From positions 15,104-79,103 of the forward strand of contig JBAWVS010000002.1 of NCBI GenBank assembly GCA_037147175.1: DNA of 64,000 bases. The letters run 5' to 3'. The notes beneath the pieces are model-generated. The model was not told the origin of the DNA, did no database searches, and saw only the letters and a program-made list of their open reading frames with translations. Source of the stretch: a bacterium (GTDB lineage Bacteria; Cyanobacteriota; Vampirovibrionia; Gastranaerophilales; UBA9971). Every line of letters begins with the position of its first letter. Position 1 is the stretch's first letter. Below, piece by piece: positions 2,872-36,842 of this stretch. A program made the translations under genes and the position numbers.

Positions 2872-5562
2872 TTATAACAATTCATTAAATTCAAAATCCA
2901 AAAGCTTTTCTCTAACTATATCCCATTCTATTTCAGGAATTAAAATATTAAGAAAATGATCAGCCCTTAAAGTGCTGTTAGATACCTCTATTTTACAGTC
3001 AGAAAGACTATTTTCAAGACTAATAACCTTAACGGGTTCTCTATCCTGCCCTGCTTTTAAGATAAAATCTAATTCATATCGACCATTTGATTCACATATA
3101 TTTAGCGAATGAATTGCTGGTCTTATATCAACTTTTTTTAAGCAATTTTTTTTAGAAATCTTTTCTATTACTATATTGTCTTGTAATAAACAGTTTTTGA
3201 CAATACTCTTTAAGTCGATTTTTTCAATTTTTTCCTGCTCCACAGGGAAAGCCTTGTATTTTGCCCAGTATACAGCTTTTTCAATTGATATTTTATCTTT
3301 AGAAATATTAACAATTTCCAGAATTTTTGAATTTTCAGGCAAAAAGGTATTTAATCTTTCTTTTATTTTTTCCGGAGAAATATTTTCCTGAAGTTCGATA
3401 TCTGCGCATTCAGCAATCCCTTCTACAAAAATCGGCAATGCAACCGCCAAAGAGATTTTAGGACTAGGATTAAACCCCTGCGTAAAATTAATTTTCAAAC
3501 CTGCTTTGCGAATTGCGGCATAAAGCAATTTTTGCCAATCAAGATGAGAAATATATTTTAATTCGTTTGTTTTTTGAATTTTTATTCTGTATCTATGAAT
3601 ATCATCGTCATTGCGGGAAAGCGCAATGCACTGACCCGACAACCTGTCCCCCTGCGAATTATTTTTCCGAGGAAGATCTGCAATTGGTTGTACTTGTTCA
3701 GGCTCACAAGAGTCCAGCTTATGACCTCTCAAAGAAGGTTCTGTCTGCAAATTCTGACAAACTCCGCAGCTTGAGCAAACTTCATCGCAAGGATCGGAAT
3801 TTTTAAAATCAAGCGCATTTTTGTATTCAGCAATCAACCAGCTTTTATCAACCCCGACATTAAAAATATCCCATGATAATTCTTCGTTTACATCAAATTC
3901 TTTAGCAGAATAATCACTCAAATTTATTGAAAGCGATTCCGCTGTTTTAAGCCATATATCTTTGTTAAAATGCTCATTCCACGCATCGAGATAAGAACCG
4001 TTTTTATAAACTTCTTCTATAAGTCCGTTTAACTCCCTGCCCCCCCTTGAAAAAACCGCTTCAAGCTGGCATAAAAAACTGTCATGAAAATTAAGTTTCA
4101 AATCTCTTATTGGTCGTGCTTTTTGGCGAAGATATCTTATTTTATCTTCAATTACCTCTAATTTGTCCTGAGCTGCCCACTGAAAAGGGGTAAAAGGCTT
4201 TGGAACAAAAATAGATACAGTGCATGTAATGCTCAAAAATGTCCTTAGTTTTAATTCATTTTTAATTTTTGAAGCACTCGCCTTTATTTTTTGCAAAAGA
4301 TTTATAATTTCGTCTAAATCTTCATAAGTTTCTGTCGGAAGCCCTATCATAAAATACAGTTTAATCTTACTCCAGCCTGTTTTATAGACAGAAAGTACCG
4401 CTTCAATAATTTGCTCTTCGTTTAAATTTTTGTTTATAACATCTCTTAATCTCTGGCTTCCTGCTTCCGGTGCGATAGTTATTGTGCTTTTTCTCACCGA
4501 ATTAACCAGTTCTGCCAATTTTAAACTAAATTTGTCCGCTCTCTGGCTGGGAAGAGAAATTGAAACCCCTGAACAGGCATGTTTTTCATTAAGAATGCCT
4601 ACAAGTTTTTCTATATTAATATAATCGTTAGAAGATAAAGCCAGAAGCGAATATTCATCATAGCCGGTATTTTTCAAAACGCTGTCAACGATTTCCACAA
4701 CATGCTCGGGAGATCTTTCTCTCACCGGTAAATTTACAAAACATGCCTGACAAAAACGGCACATTCTTCCACATCCGCGTCTTAATTCAATTACTGCCCT
4801 ATCATGCACTGCTGTGCTATAAGGAATAGGAAATTTTACAGGATAATCCCTATTATCAATATTATCTATCCTTTTTGTTATGACAGCAGAAAATTCTTCA
4901 CTTACAGGAATTAATTTTGTCCCGTTTTCATTTTTATAAAATCGGGGAACATAAACTCCTTCAAGCTTAGCAAGATTCTTTAAAGTTTCTTCTCTTGATA
5001 ATTTATTGGATTTTGCATTCTGTATTTCTTCCAAAAGCTTAATAATTATAGTTTCGCCATCGCCTATAAGAAAAACATCTATAAATTCGGAAATTGGCTC
5101 AGGATTATAACTTCCCGGGCCACCCGCCACTACTATTGGGTTAAATTCATTCCTGTCCGCTGATTTTATGGGAATATTCGCCATCTCCAACATAGACAGA
5201 ATGGTTGGATAGCTCAACTCATACTGAAGAGAAAAAGCTATCATATCAAAATCATTAAGAGGTCTAAAGCTTTCTAGTCCATAAAGAGGAATATGATTTT
5301 GCTGTAATTCTTTCTTAAAATCAACTTCCGGCGCATAAACTCTGTCGGCCAAAAAGTTTCTTTTGTCATAACAATTAACTTTATCGTATAAAATTCTTAA
5401 ACCTAAATTAGAAATACCTATTTCGTACAAATCAGGAAAAGCAAAAGCCACCCTAGCTTCTGCGGAAGCCCAGTCTTTATTGAAACTCCCGATTTCTTTA
5501 CCTATATATCTCGAAGGTTTATTTACTTTTTTTAAAATTCTTTGAATCTTTTCTCTCATCAT
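2872..5562 (-). CDS. radical SAM protein (B12-binding-like N-domain, C-terminal DUF2344-like module)
   Basis: CX3CX2C motif in RGCGRMCRFCQA. At 896 aa its size and layout fit the fused TIGR03960/TIGR03936-type radical SAM proteins that often sit next to rne/rng (from memory). Confidence 0.75.
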   Translation of the reverse strand: MMREKIQRILKKVNKPSRYIGKEIGSFNKDWASAEARVAFAFPDLYEIGISNLGLRILYDKVNCYDKRNFLADRVYAPEVDFKKELQQNHIPLYGLESFRPLNDFDMIAFSLQYELSYPTILSMLEMANIPIKSADRNEFNPIVVAGGPGSYNPEPISEFIDVFLIGDGETIIIKLLEEIQNAKSNKLSREETLKNLAKLEGVYVPRFYKNENGTKLIPVSEEFSAVITKRIDNIDNRDYPVKFPIPYSTAVHDRAVIELRRGCGRMCRFCQACFVNLPVRERSPEHVVEIVDSVLKNTGYDEYSLLALSSNDYINIEKLVGILNEKHACSGVSISLPSQRADKFSLKLAELVNSVRKSTITIAPEAGSQRLRDVINKNLNEEQIIEAVLSVYKTGWSKIKLYFMIGLPTETYEDLDEIINLLQKIKASASKIKNELKLRTFLSITCTVSIFVPKPFTPFQWAAQDKLEVIEDKIRYLRQKARPIRDLKLNFHDSFLCQLEAVFSRGGRELNGLIEEVYKNGSYLDAWNEHFNKDIWLKTAESLSINLSDYSAKEFDVNEELSWDIFNVGVDKSWLIAEYKNALDFKNSDPCDEVCSSCGVCQNLQTEPSLRGHKLDSCEPEQVQPIADLPRKNNSQGDRLSGQCIALSRNDDDIHRYRIKIQKTNELKYISHLDWQKLLYAAIRKAGLKINFTQGFNPSPKISLAVALPIFVEGIAECADIELQENISPEKIKERLNTFLPENSKILEIVNISKDKISIEKAVYWAKYKAFPVEQEKIEKIDLKSIVKNCLLQDNIVIEKISKKNCLKKVDIRPAIHSLNICESNGRYELDFILKAGQDREPVKVISLENSLSDCKIEVSNSTLRADHFLNILIPEIEWDIVREKLLDFEFNELL

Positions 5563-12296: not shown

Positions 12297-12380
12297 TTAA
12301 GAGCCTATCCTTTAGGGACTGCGGTTAAAATCATAAACGGCTTGTTTGACAAGGCGGTTTTGATTTTAACAAGACAGCTT
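12297..12380. repeat. conserved intergenic hairpin element, copy 1
   Basis: The 65-nt core at 12316-12380 (ggactgcggttaaaatcataaacggcttgtttgacaaggcggttttgattttaacaagacagctt) matches 27331-27395 at 64 of 65 positions. The left flank ttaagagcctatc is also shared. Confidence 0.9.
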
Positions 12381-27266: not shown

Positions 27267-27395
27267 TTAAGAGCCTATCTTGTTAAAAATATAAAAATCG
27301 AGATATACAAGTTTGATAGGCTCGTTTTAAGGACTGCGGTTAAAATCGTAAACGGCTTGTTTGACAAGGCGGTTTTGATTTTAACAAGACAGCTT
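27267..27395. repeat. conserved intergenic hairpin element, copy 2 (with an extra ~50-nt hairpin)
   Basis: The core at 27331-27395 matches 12316-12380 at 64 of 65 positions. Between the shared left flank (ttaagagcctatc) and the core lies an extra inverted repeat gagcctatc...gataggctc (27271-27323) that copy 1 lacks. Confidence 0.9.
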
Positions 27396-31370: not shown

Positions 31371-32732
31371 TTACTTATTATCGAGGAGTCCGAAATTAAT
31401 TGATTTTGTTTTAAAGCACTTCCAGCCAGCTTTAGCATCAGATAAATCAATTTCTCCTTCGTAAATGCCGAAAACAGAAGGTCCGCTTCCTGACATCAGG
31501 CTATTTTTGCAACCTTTTTGAGTCAAATAATCTTTAATTTCTTTAATCTCGGCATAATCCGGCAAAATAGCTTCTTCAATGTGGTTTTTTAAAAGCAGGG
31601 CAATTTTATTTGAATTATTTTCACAAATAGCCGATTTCATTTTTTCAAGTCCTTTGATTCCAGGTTTTTGAGGAAGCGCGGCATATTTTGTATAGGCTTC
31701 TTTGGCCGAAATAAAAAGATTTTTTGGTTTTATTATTGCGATATTCAAATCAGGTGTTGAAATTTTTGATAAAAGTTCTCCTCTTGAAGTTGCAACTTGT
31801 GTTCCTCCTTCAAGACAAAAATTAATATCGGAACCCATTTGAGAAGCAAGGTTGTGAATTTCTGAAGCGTTTAAAATATTATCAAAAAGCCGGTTTAATC
31901 CCCATAAAGTGCCTGCCGCATTTGAACTTCCTCCGGCTAGGCCTGCCGCTACAGGAATATTTTTTTCTATATGAATCTTGACTTTATAACCGTTTAAATC
32001 AGCTTTTTGTAAAAATAATTCCGCAGCCTTATAAACCAAATTATTATTATCGTAAGGTATCAAGTCGGAATTTCCGGATAATTCAATGACGTTTTGAGGA
32101 GGGTTTAAATTTTTATTATTAGCTGATATAATATGTTTAGAAATCGTCGATGACCCTGCCCTTGTTCCGGCAGGTAAAGCATCGACGATTTTGGTTTCAT
32201 AATTTAAATTGTAAAATAAATGTCCAAATGTGTTTTTGGCTATATTAACAATAACTGTTTTGTTTTCTCCATTCAGATTAATGGATGCCTTAATGTATCT
32301 GAAACCAACGATTCCATCAGTTCTGGTTTTCAGAGGCTGATGCAGTTCACTTACTTCGCCTTTTTCAATTATTTCTTTTAATTTCGGTAAAATTTTTAAC
32401 TTTGTTATATCAGCACTCGAGTTTATTACTTTTTTAATTCCTTTATTGCTGAATTGAATTTCTCCTAAATAAGAATGGGTTAATTTTTGTCCCTGTATAT
32501 TTTTTTTATAATGATTTATCGAAGACTTTCTTAAAGATTTCAAATCATCTCCAAAATCGCCAAGTTCTTTGCCTGTGAGACAAATTGATACCTGCTCAAC
32601 TTCTATAGTCAAATAATCATAGAGACTCACCGTCTGCATTATGCTCTGAATTTCATGAAAACCGTCTGCTCTTTTTTTGAGGATTTCAAGACTCAGATTT
32701 ATTTTTGCAGGGGTTTTAACTTGAATTTTCAT
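31371..32732 (-). CDS. ispE: 4-diphosphocytidyl-2-C-methyl-D-erythritol kinase carrying a ~160-aa internal insertion
   Basis: GHMP kinase motifs TPAKINLSLEILKKRADGFHEIQS, NLVYKAAELF, PVAAGLAGGSSNAAG and SGSGPSVFG. Immediately follows rsmA (conserved rsmA-ispE pairing). 453 aa against a typical ~285 aa; the extra residues are about 51-213. Confidence 0.85.
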   Translation of the reverse strand: MKIQVKTPAKINLSLEILKKRADGFHEIQSIMQTVSLYDYLTIEVEQVSICLTGKELGDFGDDLKSLRKSSINHYKKNIQGQKLTHSYLGEIQFSNKGIKKVINSSADITKLKILPKLKEIIEKGEVSELHQPLKTRTDGIVGFRYIKASINLNGENKTVIVNIAKNTFGHLFYNLNYETKIVDALPAGTRAGSSTISKHIISANNKNLNPPQNVIELSGNSDLIPYDNNNLVYKAAELFLQKADLNGYKVKIHIEKNIPVAAGLAGGSSNAAGTLWGLNRLFDNILNASEIHNLASQMGSDINFCLEGGTQVATSRGELLSKISTPDLNIAIIKPKNLFISAKEAYTKYAALPQKPGIKGLEKMKSAICENNSNKIALLLKNHIEEAILPDYAEIKEIKDYLTQKGCKNSLMSGSGPSVFGIYEGEIDLSDAKAGWKCFKTKSINFGLLDNK

Positions 32733-32734
32733 AA

Positions 32735-33580
32735 TTACCTGTTTAATAACCGGTTAATACAATCTGTTAAAATTTTATATTCCTGCATTGAAAGAGTTTC
32801 TCCCCTTCTGTCAGGAATAATTCCGCTTTCTTCAAAGGCTTTTGAGAGAACTTCACCGGAAAATCCGCCCTGCAAAAGGGCATTTTTTAGGGTTTTTCTT
32901 CTTGTTCCAAAAGCTGCTTTAATTATTTTCCTGAAAAGTTTCGGATTTTCCAGATCGATAATAGGTTTTTGTCTTATTTTGAATTTTATAAGTGCAGAAT
33001 CTACTTTTGGAGCGGGATAAAAACTCTTTGAGGGAACTTTGCATATAAGTTCTGTTTCTGCCCAAAAATTTACAAGTATGGATAACAGTCCATAATCTTT
33101 TGAAGGGCTTTTTTCATTTGCTATAATTCTTCTTGCAACTTCATATTGAACCATTAAAATGATTTCTTTTATGCACTGCCTGTTTTTATTGTTAAAATCA
33201 TCAATTTCTCCCAGTAAATGCACTATAATAGGGCTTGTTATATAGTACGGAATATTTGCTATGATTTTAACGGGGCTTTCTATAAGTTTTGAAATGTCTG
33301 TTTTTAATATGTCTTGATGAATTAGTTCAATGTTTTTGCAGGGAAGTGCTTGTAAGACCTCAATTGCATTTTCGTCAAGCTCAATGGCTATAACTTTTTT
33401 GGCAATTTCTGCAAGTTTTTCTGTTACAAAACCCGCCCCTGCTCCTATTTCAATAACTGTATCATCAGAATTTAAAGCGGCTTCATCAATAATTTTTTGA
33501 ATAATCTTTTCATTAACCAGAAAATTTTGCCCTAAACGCTTTTTTGTCTTAAATTGTTTTGCTCTTTGGATATAATTCAA
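32735..33580 (-). CDS. rsmA: 16S rRNA (adenine1518/1519-N6)-dimethyltransferase
   Basis: KRLGQNFLVNEKIIQKII...VIEIGAGAGFVTEKL...NIPYYITSPI is the KsgA/RsmA signature. Confidence 0.93.
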   Translation of the reverse strand: MNYIQRAKQFKTKKRLGQNFLVNEKIIQKIIDEAALNSDDTVIEIGAGAGFVTEKLAEIAKKVIAIELDENAIEVLQALPCKNIELIHQDILKTDISKLIESPVKIIANIPYYITSPIIVHLLGEIDDFNNKNRQCIKEIILMVQYEVARRIIANEKSPSKDYGLLSILVNFWAETELICKVPSKSFYPAPKVDSALIKFKIRQKPIIDLENPKLFRKIIKAAFGTRRKTLKNALLQGGFSGEVLSKAFEESGIIPDRRGETLSMQEYKILTDCINRLLNR

Positions 33581-35004: not shown

Positions 35005-35026
35005 AGAACTAAATAAATAAAAGCTT

Positions 35027-35062
35027 GGCTAAAACGATATAAACATTTATATCGTTTTAGCC
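35027..35062. terminator. bidirectional hairpin terminator between convergent genes
   Basis: Perfect 17-bp stem ggctaaaacgatataaa / ca / tttatatcgttttagcc. Confidence 0.7.
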
Positions 35063-35106
35063 ATTTTGTCAAAATCAACTCTTTCTATAAAAAACTTTTA
35101 TAATAT

Positions 35107-35487
35107 TTAAGACAAAACTTTTTTTGATAATAATGATAATCTACTTGGTATCTTATTGATTTCATGGAGAATCATTTCAGGATATTTTTTGCTTAATCCT
35201 GTTAATAAGTCTAGCAAATTTTGTTCATTTTTTCTGTATTTCCCTCTGTTAGGGTACTCTAAAATCGTTCTAATTGCATTAAATGATTTTTCGGGACTTG
35301 TACAATATAGTTCTTGGGTGCGTTTTGTTTTTGGAGGACATTTAGTTACAATTTCAAAAAAGTCTTTTTCTAAATTTTTTATTACTGGCGATTGACTATC
35401 AACCCATGTAAAAGAATGTTGTAAAAGTCGGGGGGGGGGAGATTTAATGTTTTTGTACATACCCTTTACGGCTTCTAGAATTGTCAT
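35107..35487 (-). CDS. hypothetical protein with an internal poly-C/G tract
   Basis: 126-aa ORF. Codons 16-19 (SPPPR) are encoded by the G10 run at 35430-35439. No family recognised. Confidence 0.4.
   Translation of the reverse strand: MTILEAVKGMYKNIKSPPPRLLQHSFTWVDSQSPVIKNLEKDFFEIVTKCPPKTKRTQELYCTSPEKSFNAIRTILEYPNRGKYRKNEQNLLDLLTGLSKKYPEMILHEINKIPSRLSLLSKKVLS
35430..35439. repeat. G10 homopolymer (C10 on the coding strand)
   Basis: gtcg + ggggggggg + a, counted directly. It is the longest G/C homopolymer I saw in this AT-rich window. Confidence 0.95.
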
Positions 35488-35608
35488 TTGGTTTTCCTTT
35501 CTTTAATTTATTGATTTTTTTGTTATCTAAATATAGAAAGTATCTCCAAGGAAAAAATTGCTAATAAAATTCAAAAATTTTTAAATTATTTATTAAAATA
35601 TAGGGCAT

Positions 35609-35650
35609 ATAAAATAATGGTAGAAAATTTTTATTCTACCATTATTTTAT
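35609..35650 (-). terminator. hairpin downstream of metX
   Basis: Perfect 17-bp inverted repeat ataaaataatggtagaa / aattttta / ttctaccattattttat. Confidence 0.55.
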
Positions 35651-35714
35651 ATTTCTTAATATAAATTTACATAAATTTCATGCTTTGAGTATCAGGGTTT
35701 ATAAAATAGCCGTT

Positions 35715-36842
35715 TTAAGCATTAACACCTTTAAGGAAGTTTTTCAAAATCTTTGTCTGGTCTTCAACTTCCAAAAGAAAGGAGTCATGTCCGTAAGGTG
35801 AATCAATATTGCAGTAAGTGATTTCTTTTTCAAGGCTCATGAGAGTCCTTGCAGTGTTTTTAAGCTCTTCCGGAGGGAAAAGCCAATCCGTAGAAAAGGT
35901 AATAAATAAAAATTTGGACTTGCTGTCCTTAAAGGCATGTGCAAGTGAGCCGTATTTTTGGTGAAGATCAAAATAATCCATAGCTTTTGTTATATATAAA
36001 TAACTATTCGCGTCAAACCTGTCTACAAAGCTTTGTCCCTGATACCGCAGATAACTTTCCACCTGAAAATTAATATCAAAGTTGAAATCAGGCTTTAGTT
36101 TGTCCTGAAGCTTTCTGCCGAATTTTTGGTGCATAGATTCTTCGCTTAAGTAAGTAATATGTCCTATCATTCTGGCAAGAGCAAGACCTGTTGCAGGAGT
36201 TTCAGAATCATAATAATTGCCATTTTTCCAGTTAGGATCAGAAATTATTGCATTTCTGCCGACTTCGTTGAAAGCAATGTTTTGAGCTGATAATCTGCTT
36301 GCAGAAGCTATTGCAACGCAAGATTTAACCATATTAGGATACTGAATAGCCCATTCTAAAGCTTGCATTCCTCCCATAGAGCCGCCCGCAACGTTCAAAA
36401 GTTTTTTTATTCCGAAAAAATCTATAAGTTTTTTTTGAACTTTAACCATATCTTCAACTGTTATTACAGGAAAGCTTGTCCCGTAAGGCTTACCTGTTTC
36501 AGGGTTTATAGAAGATGGACCTGTTGTGCCTTTGCAGCCTCCGAGAAAATTTGAAGAGATTATAAAATATTTGTTTGTATCAAAAGCTTTTTCAGGACCT
36601 ATCATATTATCCCACCAGCCGGGTTTTTTGTCTTCCGATGAATGGTAGCCTGCCGCATGTGCATCTCCTGAAAGTGCATGCAAGACGAGGATAGCGTTGC
36701 TTTTGTCTTCGTTAAGTTCGCCATAAGTTTCATAAGCAACAGTAATCGGACCAAAATCCAGACCGTTTTCAAGATTTATTTTTTCATCAAACGAAAAATA
36801 TTTTGTTTCAACTATTCCAACTGAATTATTCAAACCAATCAT
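35715..36842 (-). CDS. metX: homoserine O-acetyltransferase
   Basis: Alpha/beta hydrolase with GGSMGGMQALEW (nucleophile elbow), LHALSGDAH and PYGHDSFLLE. Start set at ATG 36842 (MIGLNNSVG). Confidence 0.9.
   Translation of the reverse strand: MIGLNNSVGIVETKYFSFDEKINLENGLDFGPITVAYETYGELNEDKSNAILVLHALSGDAHAAGYHSSEDKKPGWWDNMIGPEKAFDTNKYFIISSNFLGGCKGTTGPSSINPETGKPYGTSFPVITVEDMVKVQKKLIDFFGIKKLLNVAGGSMGGMQALEWAIQYPNMVKSCVAIASASRLSAQNIAFNEVGRNAIISDPNWKNGNYYDSETPATGLALARMIGHITYLSEESMHQKFGRKLQDKLKPDFNFDINFQVESYLRYQGQSFVDRFDANSYLYITKAMDYFDLHQKYGSLAHAFKDSKSKFLFITFSTDWLFPPEELKNTARTLMSLEKEITYCNIDSPYGHDSFLLEVEDQTKILKNFLKGVNA

Follow-up and report, generated by a model that had tools for sequence, protein, structure and literature searches.

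A phage-type LPD3 domain nested in frame in ispE of a Vampirovibrionia genome is probably a cassette-like element

In a 64,000-nucleotide stretch of the Gastranaerophilales (UBA9971) assembly GCA_037147175.1 (contig JBAWVS010000002.1, positions 15,104 to 79,103 of the forward strand; hereafter the window), the gene for the essential isoprenoid-pathway kinase IspE (4-diphosphocytidyl-2-C-methyl-D-erythritol kinase) encodes 453 amino acids (31371..32732, minus strand), while insert-free IspE homologues comprise 285–300. The additional residues form an in-frame copy of LPD3 (large polyvalent protein-associated domain 3). We consider that this module is probably a phage-derived, cassette-like in-frame domain element, which occupies loops of housekeeping and other chromosomal genes of Melainabacteria (Vampirovibrionia). 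Three behaviours of a cassette are shown: in-frame copies stand in the loops of unrelated genes; the core of the module and the hairpin behind it are exchanged, with the tail and flanks staying constant; and the module is lost, leaving scars. Since related modules are found in at least six other genes of allied bacteria, and are swapped or lost between close relatives, we read the insert as a movable cassette rather than a built-in regulator of IspE.

The gene was recognised by the NCBIfam ispE equivalog profile TIGR00154, which scored 221.8 bits against a cut-off of 138.7 with the match split into two stretches, and the 453-residue open reading frame (ORF) matched both Pfam GHMP_kinases_N and GHMP_kinases_C. 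IspE chains from the PDB aligned with residues 3–55 and 217–420, and not between them. The enzyme is interrupted after residue ~47 by ~167 residues, with the frame kept open, as the first-pass annotation had proposed when it placed a foreign domain at residues 51–213 (32094–32582). The segment before the insert (residues 1–47; 32592..32732, minus strand) aligned to residues 6–58 of Mycobacterium tuberculosis IspE and carries the conserved K10 and N12. The segment behind it (residues 215–453; 31371..32090, minus strand), identified by the two Pfam GHMP matches and the PDB alignments, begins with the strand NVIELSG and runs through GHMP motif II (PVAAGLAGGSSNAAG), Asp302 and motif III (GSGPSVFG) to the stop codon. 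K10, N12, G264–S270, D302 and S414–P418 all fell in nearly invariant columns of the IspE homologue alignment.

The AlphaFold model of the whole 453-residue protein had a mean predicted local distance difference test score (pLDDT) of 85.7, and in the AlphaFold2 (AF2) model the IspE part superposed on solved IspE structures (best entries 4emd, 3pyd and 1oj4) with template-modelling (TM) scores, TMt, of 0.84–0.89 and root-mean-square deviations of 2.2–2.7 Å. Measured against the 79%-identical orthologue of Melainabacteria GWA2_34_9, the ratio of nonsynonymous to synonymous substitution rates (dN/dS) was 0.114 for the first IspE part and 0.119 for the second. Because the motifs are intact, the modelled fold lies this close to solved IspE and dN/dS is 0.11–0.12, the kinase looks functional, as judged from sequence and models.

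The insert itself was assigned to Pfam LPD3 (PF18798) with an E-value of 7.8e-20 and 71.6 bits (gathering threshold 27), the match covering profile positions 2–114 of 114, which confirmed a resemblance to modules of phage and conjugative-element polyvalent proteins that the first-pass annotation had noted. Alignment with solo, phage and other-host LPD3 sequences resolved the module into a core of ~130 residues, a disordered and variable linker of ~20 residues, and a tail. The core (residues 48–178; 32199..32591, minus strand) has a beta-alpha-beta-beta-alpha-alpha-beta-beta-beta order of secondary structure, and at its N-terminus stand a short strand and the motif xLTGxELG, which are common to solo, phage and other-host modules. 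An earlier suggestion that one IspE strand had been duplicated on either side of the insert did not hold up: VSICLTGKE is the N-terminus of LPD3 itself (xLTGxELG), and NVIELSGNS is the native IspE strand. Modelled alone with AF2, the core reached a pLDDT above 90, and its dN/dS against the GWA2_34_9 orthologue was 0.125, close to that of the IspE parts.

Behind the core, the linker (residues 179–198; 32139..32198, minus strand) was disordered in the models (pLDDT below 50) and is encoded by a palindrome. The tail (residues 199–214, KHIISANNKNLNPPQN; 32091..32138, minus strand) is the C-terminal motif of LPD3 and is kept through swaps of the core; its consensus, (I/V)NII.D...N(L/F)NP, closes the module, the window copy ending in ..NLNP. 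Across linker and tail together (residues 179–214), dN was 0.18 and dS 0.155, both low against a dS near 1 elsewhere, and the near equality of two low values therefore fits constraint on the nucleotide rather than the amino-acid sequence.

The extent of the insert corresponds to that of a gene. In the solo LPD3 gene P0134, the ORF spans the module from xLTGxELG to ..NFNP and then stops directly; because solo ORFs end at a stop codon right after ..NFNP, the insert in IspE amounts to a whole solo LPD3 ORF minus its start and stop codons. Another solo copy lies between bipA and mscS of a related chromosome (L001, 6952–7470). Its ORF stops within the hairpin after a 1-nt change in an A run, and the linker and tail (NELVNDLPRTKQGSFTSSNDNITDYDLNFNP*) go on one frame off, the change being either a sequencing error or the mark of a recent pseudogene. 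As further observations on the wider family, many phage LPD3 modules carry the motif F.E..HPRD..GKF directly upstream (phage and solo proteins P0124, P0135, P0143, P0149, P0163, P0171 and others), and some phage and solo LPD3 proteins have a VN(I/L)F(I/F) strand motif in place of the NFNP tail.

A Foldseek search of BFVD with the modelled insert retrieved phage polyvalent proteins through their LPD3 domains (E 2.6e-11, TMq 0.67), and the same search of the PDB gave no significant match, the best (E 0.019, TM ~0.3) being to curved sheets of the NTF2/cystatin-like type. In the full-length model the insert folds as a separate domain followed by ~32 disordered residues. The module is predicted to sit in the surface beta3–beta4 hairpin of the IspE N-terminal lobe. 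There the long disordered linker would return the chain to the host loop and so leave the kinase fold undisturbed in the model; IspE would tolerate the insert because the module folds by itself and the long linker closes the loop.

We then considered the insert-free state of the same gene. An empty allele (P0291, 296 aa) falls inside the 90%-identity cluster of the window protein and occurs on at least 24 contigs, the longest reaching 669 kb. At one of its loci (L095), blastn and alignment showed that the indel segment, 499 nt in the window (32097..32595, minus strand; nt 138–636 of the coding sequence), is represented by 28 nt, which encode KLLLQEVDS. All neighbouring genes are of the same length as those of the window, and the flanks are 96–97.8% identical at the nucleotide level up to the junctions. 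As the locus matches the window apart from the indel, one species holds both filled and empty alleles, and the LPD3 module is dispensable for IspE. A peak of divergence around the indel, which would be expected of an old balanced polymorphism, was not seen between the window and this same-species locus. The 28-nt replacement (L095, 10138–10165) also creates a direct repeat of AGAAGTTGA with the two copies 15 nt apart (ATAGAAGTTGA-AAAATTATTATTACA-AGAAGTTGA-CTCA); the repeat could be the footprint of a deletion or excision, or a small duplication.

In total, IspE with LPD3 formed seven 90%-identity clusters, 54–100% identical to the window protein, with source names, where given, of Melainabacteria, and one cluster came from Candidatus Caenarcanum. 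In a tree of the IspE part, insert-bearing and insert-free alleles were interleaved (all trees were built by neighbour-joining, without support values). Several alleles retained remnants of a module. The linker hairpin and tail of one LPD3 subtype (A, described below) were left in P0016, and those of another (C) in P0014 and P0015; P0008 kept 12 residues of the left end together with the tail, and its near-twin P0013 was clean. These scar alleles stand beside filled sisters in the tree, and independent losses of the core number at least three. P0009, an IspE with 78% identity to that of the window, has 16 residues (EEIDSHVALRMTKDRN) against the usual 6–8 in the loop that elsewhere takes the insert; this loop could be another scar.

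At least four LPD3 subtypes occupy the same IspE loop, with identities of 27–46% between them. Members of subtype A (the window protein, P0002 and P0003) share 76–79% identity, and their nearest outsider is the solo gene P0121 (54–58%). For the other three, the closest relatives lie in other genes or solo ORFs: within subtype B (P0004 and P0006), P0004 is 66% identical to an insert in a TlyA-like protein and 56% to one in a DUF2344 protein; subtype C (P0007) is 51–53% identical to inserts in FolC; and subtype D (P0005) is 52% identical to the solo gene P0134. At equal divergence of the host (~85% amino-acid identity), the cores of an A/A pair were 77% identical and those of an A/B pair 44%. 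Nucleotide comparison of five IspE alleles revealed a corresponding mosaic, in which host parts were 76–89% identical, the tail 76–96%, and the core 50–61% between subtypes, and the linker could not be aligned. At 76–96% identity across alleles the tail behaves like the host, and the mosaic indicates that core and linker have been traded between loci, or inserted anew at the same site, with the tail staying.

An exhaustive profile search recovered 1591 relatives of LPD3, of which we inspected the best 150. Among these 150, the closest non-IspE relatives were LPD3 modules lying in frame within other chromosomal proteins, whose own domain was matched on either side of the module. At least six such hosts were found besides IspE: an S4+FtsJ (TlyA-like) methyltransferase, CbiG, a DUF2344 protein, FolC, a GNAT protein (Melainabacteria GWF2_37_15) and a histidine phosphatase (His_Phos_1). 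The source names of the relatives, where given, were Melainabacteria or Gastranaerophilales, and a metagenome scan for further copies yielded strain variants of the TlyA and IspE inserts only. The insert is neither lineage-wide nor lacking a fold of its own. The earlier picture of a domain grafted into an intact ispE stands, and the added regulatory, sensor or moonlighting role for IspE that went with it is not supported in the form proposed, in view of the same-species empty allele, the replacement of subtypes, the scars and the unrelated hosts. Its absence from an allele of the same species, its replacement or loss in sisters and the interruption of unrelated genes by related modules point to a property of the module and not of IspE; the module itself could have a function, the dN/dS of its core being 0.125.

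Directly behind the core, the linker is encoded by a hairpin, ATCGTCGATG-cttta-CCTGCC-ggaacaag-GGCAGG-gt-CATCGACGAT (32143..32189, minus strand; −28.7 kcal/mol), with a z-score of −6.99 and not one of 200 dinucleotide shuffles as stable. It is the most stable 54-nt stretch of the ispE coding sequence, and both blastn and a pattern search found its sequence only once in the 64-kb window. Within the element, a palindrome was seen in the linker only. A comparable structure was sought in 14 LPD3-coding genes, namely those of IspE subtypes A–D, TlyA, FolC, DUF2344, CbiG, a solo gene, a scar allele and two of three phage DUF2213-LPD3 variants (IMG/VR). In 13 of the 14, the 18 codons right after the core contained one of the gene's three most stable 54-nt windows, which ranked first in seven, with P0006 as the exception; the third phage variant (L109), outside this set, has the same hairpin. 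Five further hairpins (subtype D, the scar allele, the solo gene, a phage gene and the TlyA insert) gave z-scores of −3.6 to −7.1, again with none of 200 shuffles as stable. Because the hairpin sequences differ between subtypes, it is the structure and not the sequence that recurs. In subtype A, one base pair of the hairpin has changed on both sides through two nonsynonymous substitutions, CCT to TCT (P to S) and GGG to GAG (G to E), and the phage hairpins include two covarying pairs. Rfam held no family for the hairpin, returning sub-threshold chance matches only, and a terminator scanner did not call it as an intrinsic terminator.

These features suggest, speculatively, that the hairpin behind the core is the best candidate for a nucleic-acid feature that would make the module recombinogenic or mobile. 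Once in place, the module would persist either because it is tolerated as a selfish or neutral passenger that selection keeps foldable, or because it serves as a binding module, not an enzyme, with its own role. A bolder proposal, which we advance tentatively and hold to be clearly less probable than a cassette-like element as such, is that LPD3 represents an unrecognised kind of mobile element: an ORF devoid of start and stop codons, composed of core, hairpin and tail, that moves as DNA with the hairpin as its signal for recombination or mobility. Such an element would survive in essential genes by folding independently on a flexible tether rather than by splicing, and the same mechanism could underlie the shuffling of domains in polyvalent proteins.

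Several observations weigh against a cassette-like element. No transposase, recombinase or nuclease was associated with the module, and the junctions across hosts showed neither a target-site duplication nor terminal inverted repeats nor a consensus among host targets. There were no near-identical copies at different loci, the closest inter-locus pair being 66% identical in amino acids, so that movement is read from phylogeny; the window holds this single LPD3 copy only. With three sequences in each family, the covariation within hairpin subtypes is not strong in statistical terms, the viral scans having added few relatives. In the family alignment, LPD3 lacked conserved catalytic-looking residues. 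Lastly, the core is under purifying selection as strong as the enzyme's, which suits a useful function no less well than a passenger.

The last point bears on the most serious alternative, to which we give roughly one chance in a handful: that LPD3 is an adaptive graft, a binding or adaptor domain conferring on IspE and the other hosts a shared property, such as recruitment to a common partner or scaffold, or service as a sensor of, or decoy for, those phage polyvalent effectors that contain the same domain. Polymorphism and turnover of subtypes would then reflect diversifying or balancing selection in conflict between phage and host. A core dN/dS (0.125) as low as that of the host enzyme, a well-conserved fold with pLDDT above 90, the maintenance of several subtypes at one site and the occurrence of LPD3 otherwise in phage proteins that are deployed early in infection would all suit such a graft. 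It sits poorly, however, with a same-species insert-free allele that is sampled more often, with at least three independent losses of the core, with hosts that have no obvious functional link, and with the absence of a match to known defence families (PADLOC returned none). Iyer et al. (2017, PMC5512222) place LPD3 among domains of elusive function and do not count it with the potentially enzymatic LPDs. Our literature search found no function assigned to it, and in PHROGs it matched families of unknown function only. The nearly invariant residues of LPD3 are glycines and aromatics.

A second alternative, which we regard as unlikely, would make LPD3 a device of expression, in which the hairpin acts with U_UUA_AAU, an in-phase heptamer where the core ends, to cause −1 ribosomal frameshifting or pausing and so to release IspE(1–47) joined to the LPD3 core. 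The window allele has the elements of such a signal, with U_UUA_AAU at 32202–32208 (minus strand), a spacer of ~11 nt, the −28.7 kcal/mol hairpin and a −1 frame that reads TTA TGA, stopping after two codons, and the same layout recurs in half of the modules compared (7/14). The phage modules (which read AAC TTA AAT), subtypes C and D, CbiG and P0006 nevertheless lack the heptamer, and spacer length varies. In an AT-rich genome, the residues N/D-L-N are expected to be encoded as xxT TTA AAT. Since only seven of 14 modules carry the heptamer and the phage ones lack it, AT-rich codon usage probably accounts for it. We therefore rejected −1 frameshifting as the conserved role of the hairpin, the conservation of the heptamer failing across modules.

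Descent from a single ancient insertion, inherited vertically, with the subtypes as fast-diverging orthologues and the inserts in other genes unrelated, appears more doubtful still. A tail and an insertion site common to all IspE alleles would be in keeping with it, but it is contradicted by core identities of 77% and 44% at equal host divergence, and by the nearest relatives of subtypes B, C and D, which lie in other genes or solo ORFs.

We consider it very improbable that the insert is excised from the mature protein as an intein-like or self-cleaving element, even though it lies in frame in an essential gene, begins with CLTG in the window allele and ends in Asn. Homologues have C, S, D, F, L or K at the first position, so that there is no conserved nucleophile; a His-Asn pair is wanting, the insert ending in P-x-Q/E/P-N, with V, I or K as the next residue in IspE alleles and T in one allele that has no insert; and no Hint or intein family of Pfam was matched, the fold being that of LPD3.

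The same coding sequence, with 0 differences, was recovered on contigs from two independent samples (L002 and L003) besides the NCBI metagenome-assembled genome (MAG), and because it is identical in three independent assemblies the insert is not an assembly error, which settles a doubt about misassembly raised at first reading. Likewise, no second ispE, which had been a further concern, and no second copy of the insert were found in the 64-kb window by tblastn, blastn or six-frame hmmsearch. An assembly chimera, or a decaying pseudogene backed by another ispE, for which only the unusual length of the gene speaks, can accordingly be set aside as scarcely credible in the face of three identical assemblies, an open frame, a full set of motifs, dN/dS of ~0.12, conserved synteny and the lack of a second copy in the window.

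The chromosomal setting of ispE is that of a stable housekeeping locus. Its start codon lies 2 nt downstream of an rsmA/ksgA-like gene (32735..33580, minus strand), and the order GCS2, rsmA-ispE, small ORF, SPOR and DUF366 is constant across filled, empty and other-subtype alleles. GC content runs level across the insert without a shift. Further upstream, window positions ~35084–35716 do not align to the otherwise 96–98% identical L095; the filled allele L002 has a small ORF of 126 aa there, and L095 one of 98 aa. Perfect inverted repeats lie at 35026–35063 and 35607–35652 of the window. The window also encodes a homologue of DUF2344 (2896–3597, minus strand), a family that carries LPD3 in P0130; the window copy aligned continuously, with no insert.

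IspE homologues have a second hot-spot of in-frame insertion, between the two GHMP lobes, at the equivalent of window residues ~349–378 (~31599–31688, minus strand). Five proteins (P0003, P0006, P0007, P0015 and P0016) carry 4–26 extra residues there, for example HCEQNEAIHLLSNRKWIASSQAPRND, and the window allele has none. The extra residues are encoded by strong palindromes (−27.1 and −23.7 kcal/mol), and the site lies at aa 347–364 in L093 and aa 239–256 in L108. The second hot-spot suggests that short palindromic elements also land in frame in these genomes. Elsewhere in the window, one 47-nt palindrome is present twice (12324–12370 and 27339–27385), as GTTAAAATC(A/G)TAAACGGCTTGT...ACAAGGCGGTTTTGATTTTAAC, and may represent a small repeat family or a shared terminator.

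Should LPD3 be a cassette of the kind proposed here, essential enzymes across a bacterial class, the non-photosynthetic sister group of cyanobacteria, would have been colonised by a phage-derived folded domain. This would add to protein evolution, and to the persistence of selfish DNA, a route apart from inteins, introns and short palindromic repeats. A single gene with alleles in the filled, empty, swapped and scarred states constitutes a natural experiment on tolerance of domain insertion and provides a first handle on LPD3, a widespread phage domain, while the conserved intragenic hairpin may explain how modules of polyvalent proteins are shuffled. For annotators, the practical message is that over-long housekeeping genes in these MAGs are real.

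Our literature search found no account of LPD3, or of any folded phage domain, recurrently nested in housekeeping genes. The insert is alike to the LPD3 of polyvalent proteins in sequence family and predicted fold, and phage DUF2213-LPD3 proteins share with it xLTGxELG, the linker hairpin and the INIIxD..NFNP tail. The difference is one of context: here the domain is nested in a chromosomal ispE within a conserved housekeeping neighbourhood, and is not one bead of a giant injected protein. Nested insertions of LPD3 in chromosomal genes were not described by Iyer et al. (2017, PMC5512222). With inteins, the module has in common an in-frame position in an essential gene, presence/absence polymorphism among close relatives, several hosts and degenerate derivatives. 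It differs from them in lacking a Hint fold, splice-junction residues and a homing endonuclease and, unlike inteins, most likely stays in the mature protein.

Resemblance, and no more than that, can also be seen to integron attC cassettes and to the ends of IS200/IS605 elements and palindrome-associated transposable elements (PATEs), in that a variable ORF is followed by an imperfect two-tier hairpin and the right-hand exchange point lies at the 3′ foot of that hairpin. In the LPD3 module, however, the ~47-nt hairpin lacks a GTTRRRY core site at its 3′ foot and has no second or left-end counterpart, and neither an integrase nor TnpA was found in the flanks of ispE. Comparable in mode of residence are the Rickettsia palindromic elements and repeats resembling MITEs (miniature transposable elements with inverted repeats), which lie in frame in surface regions of conserved, still functional proteins and have a component of palindromic DNA. 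Such elements are short (30–50 aa) and multi-copy as DNA, and are not known to encode an autonomous fold. The palindromic component of the LPD3 linker recalls them, as do the short palindromic in-frame inserts at the second hot-spot of IspE; LPD3, by contrast, is a folded domain of 130 residues under purifying selection, present as one copy in 64 kb.

Ordinary nested domain insertions, finally, share with LPD3 a placement in loops that preserves the parent fold. They are, however, normally fixed and lineage-wide, whereas the LPD3 insert is polymorphic within a species, swapped between subtypes and found in unrelated hosts. Given a dedicated mobility mechanism, the module would be categorically new; otherwise, its kind would be that of the in-frame insertion elements.

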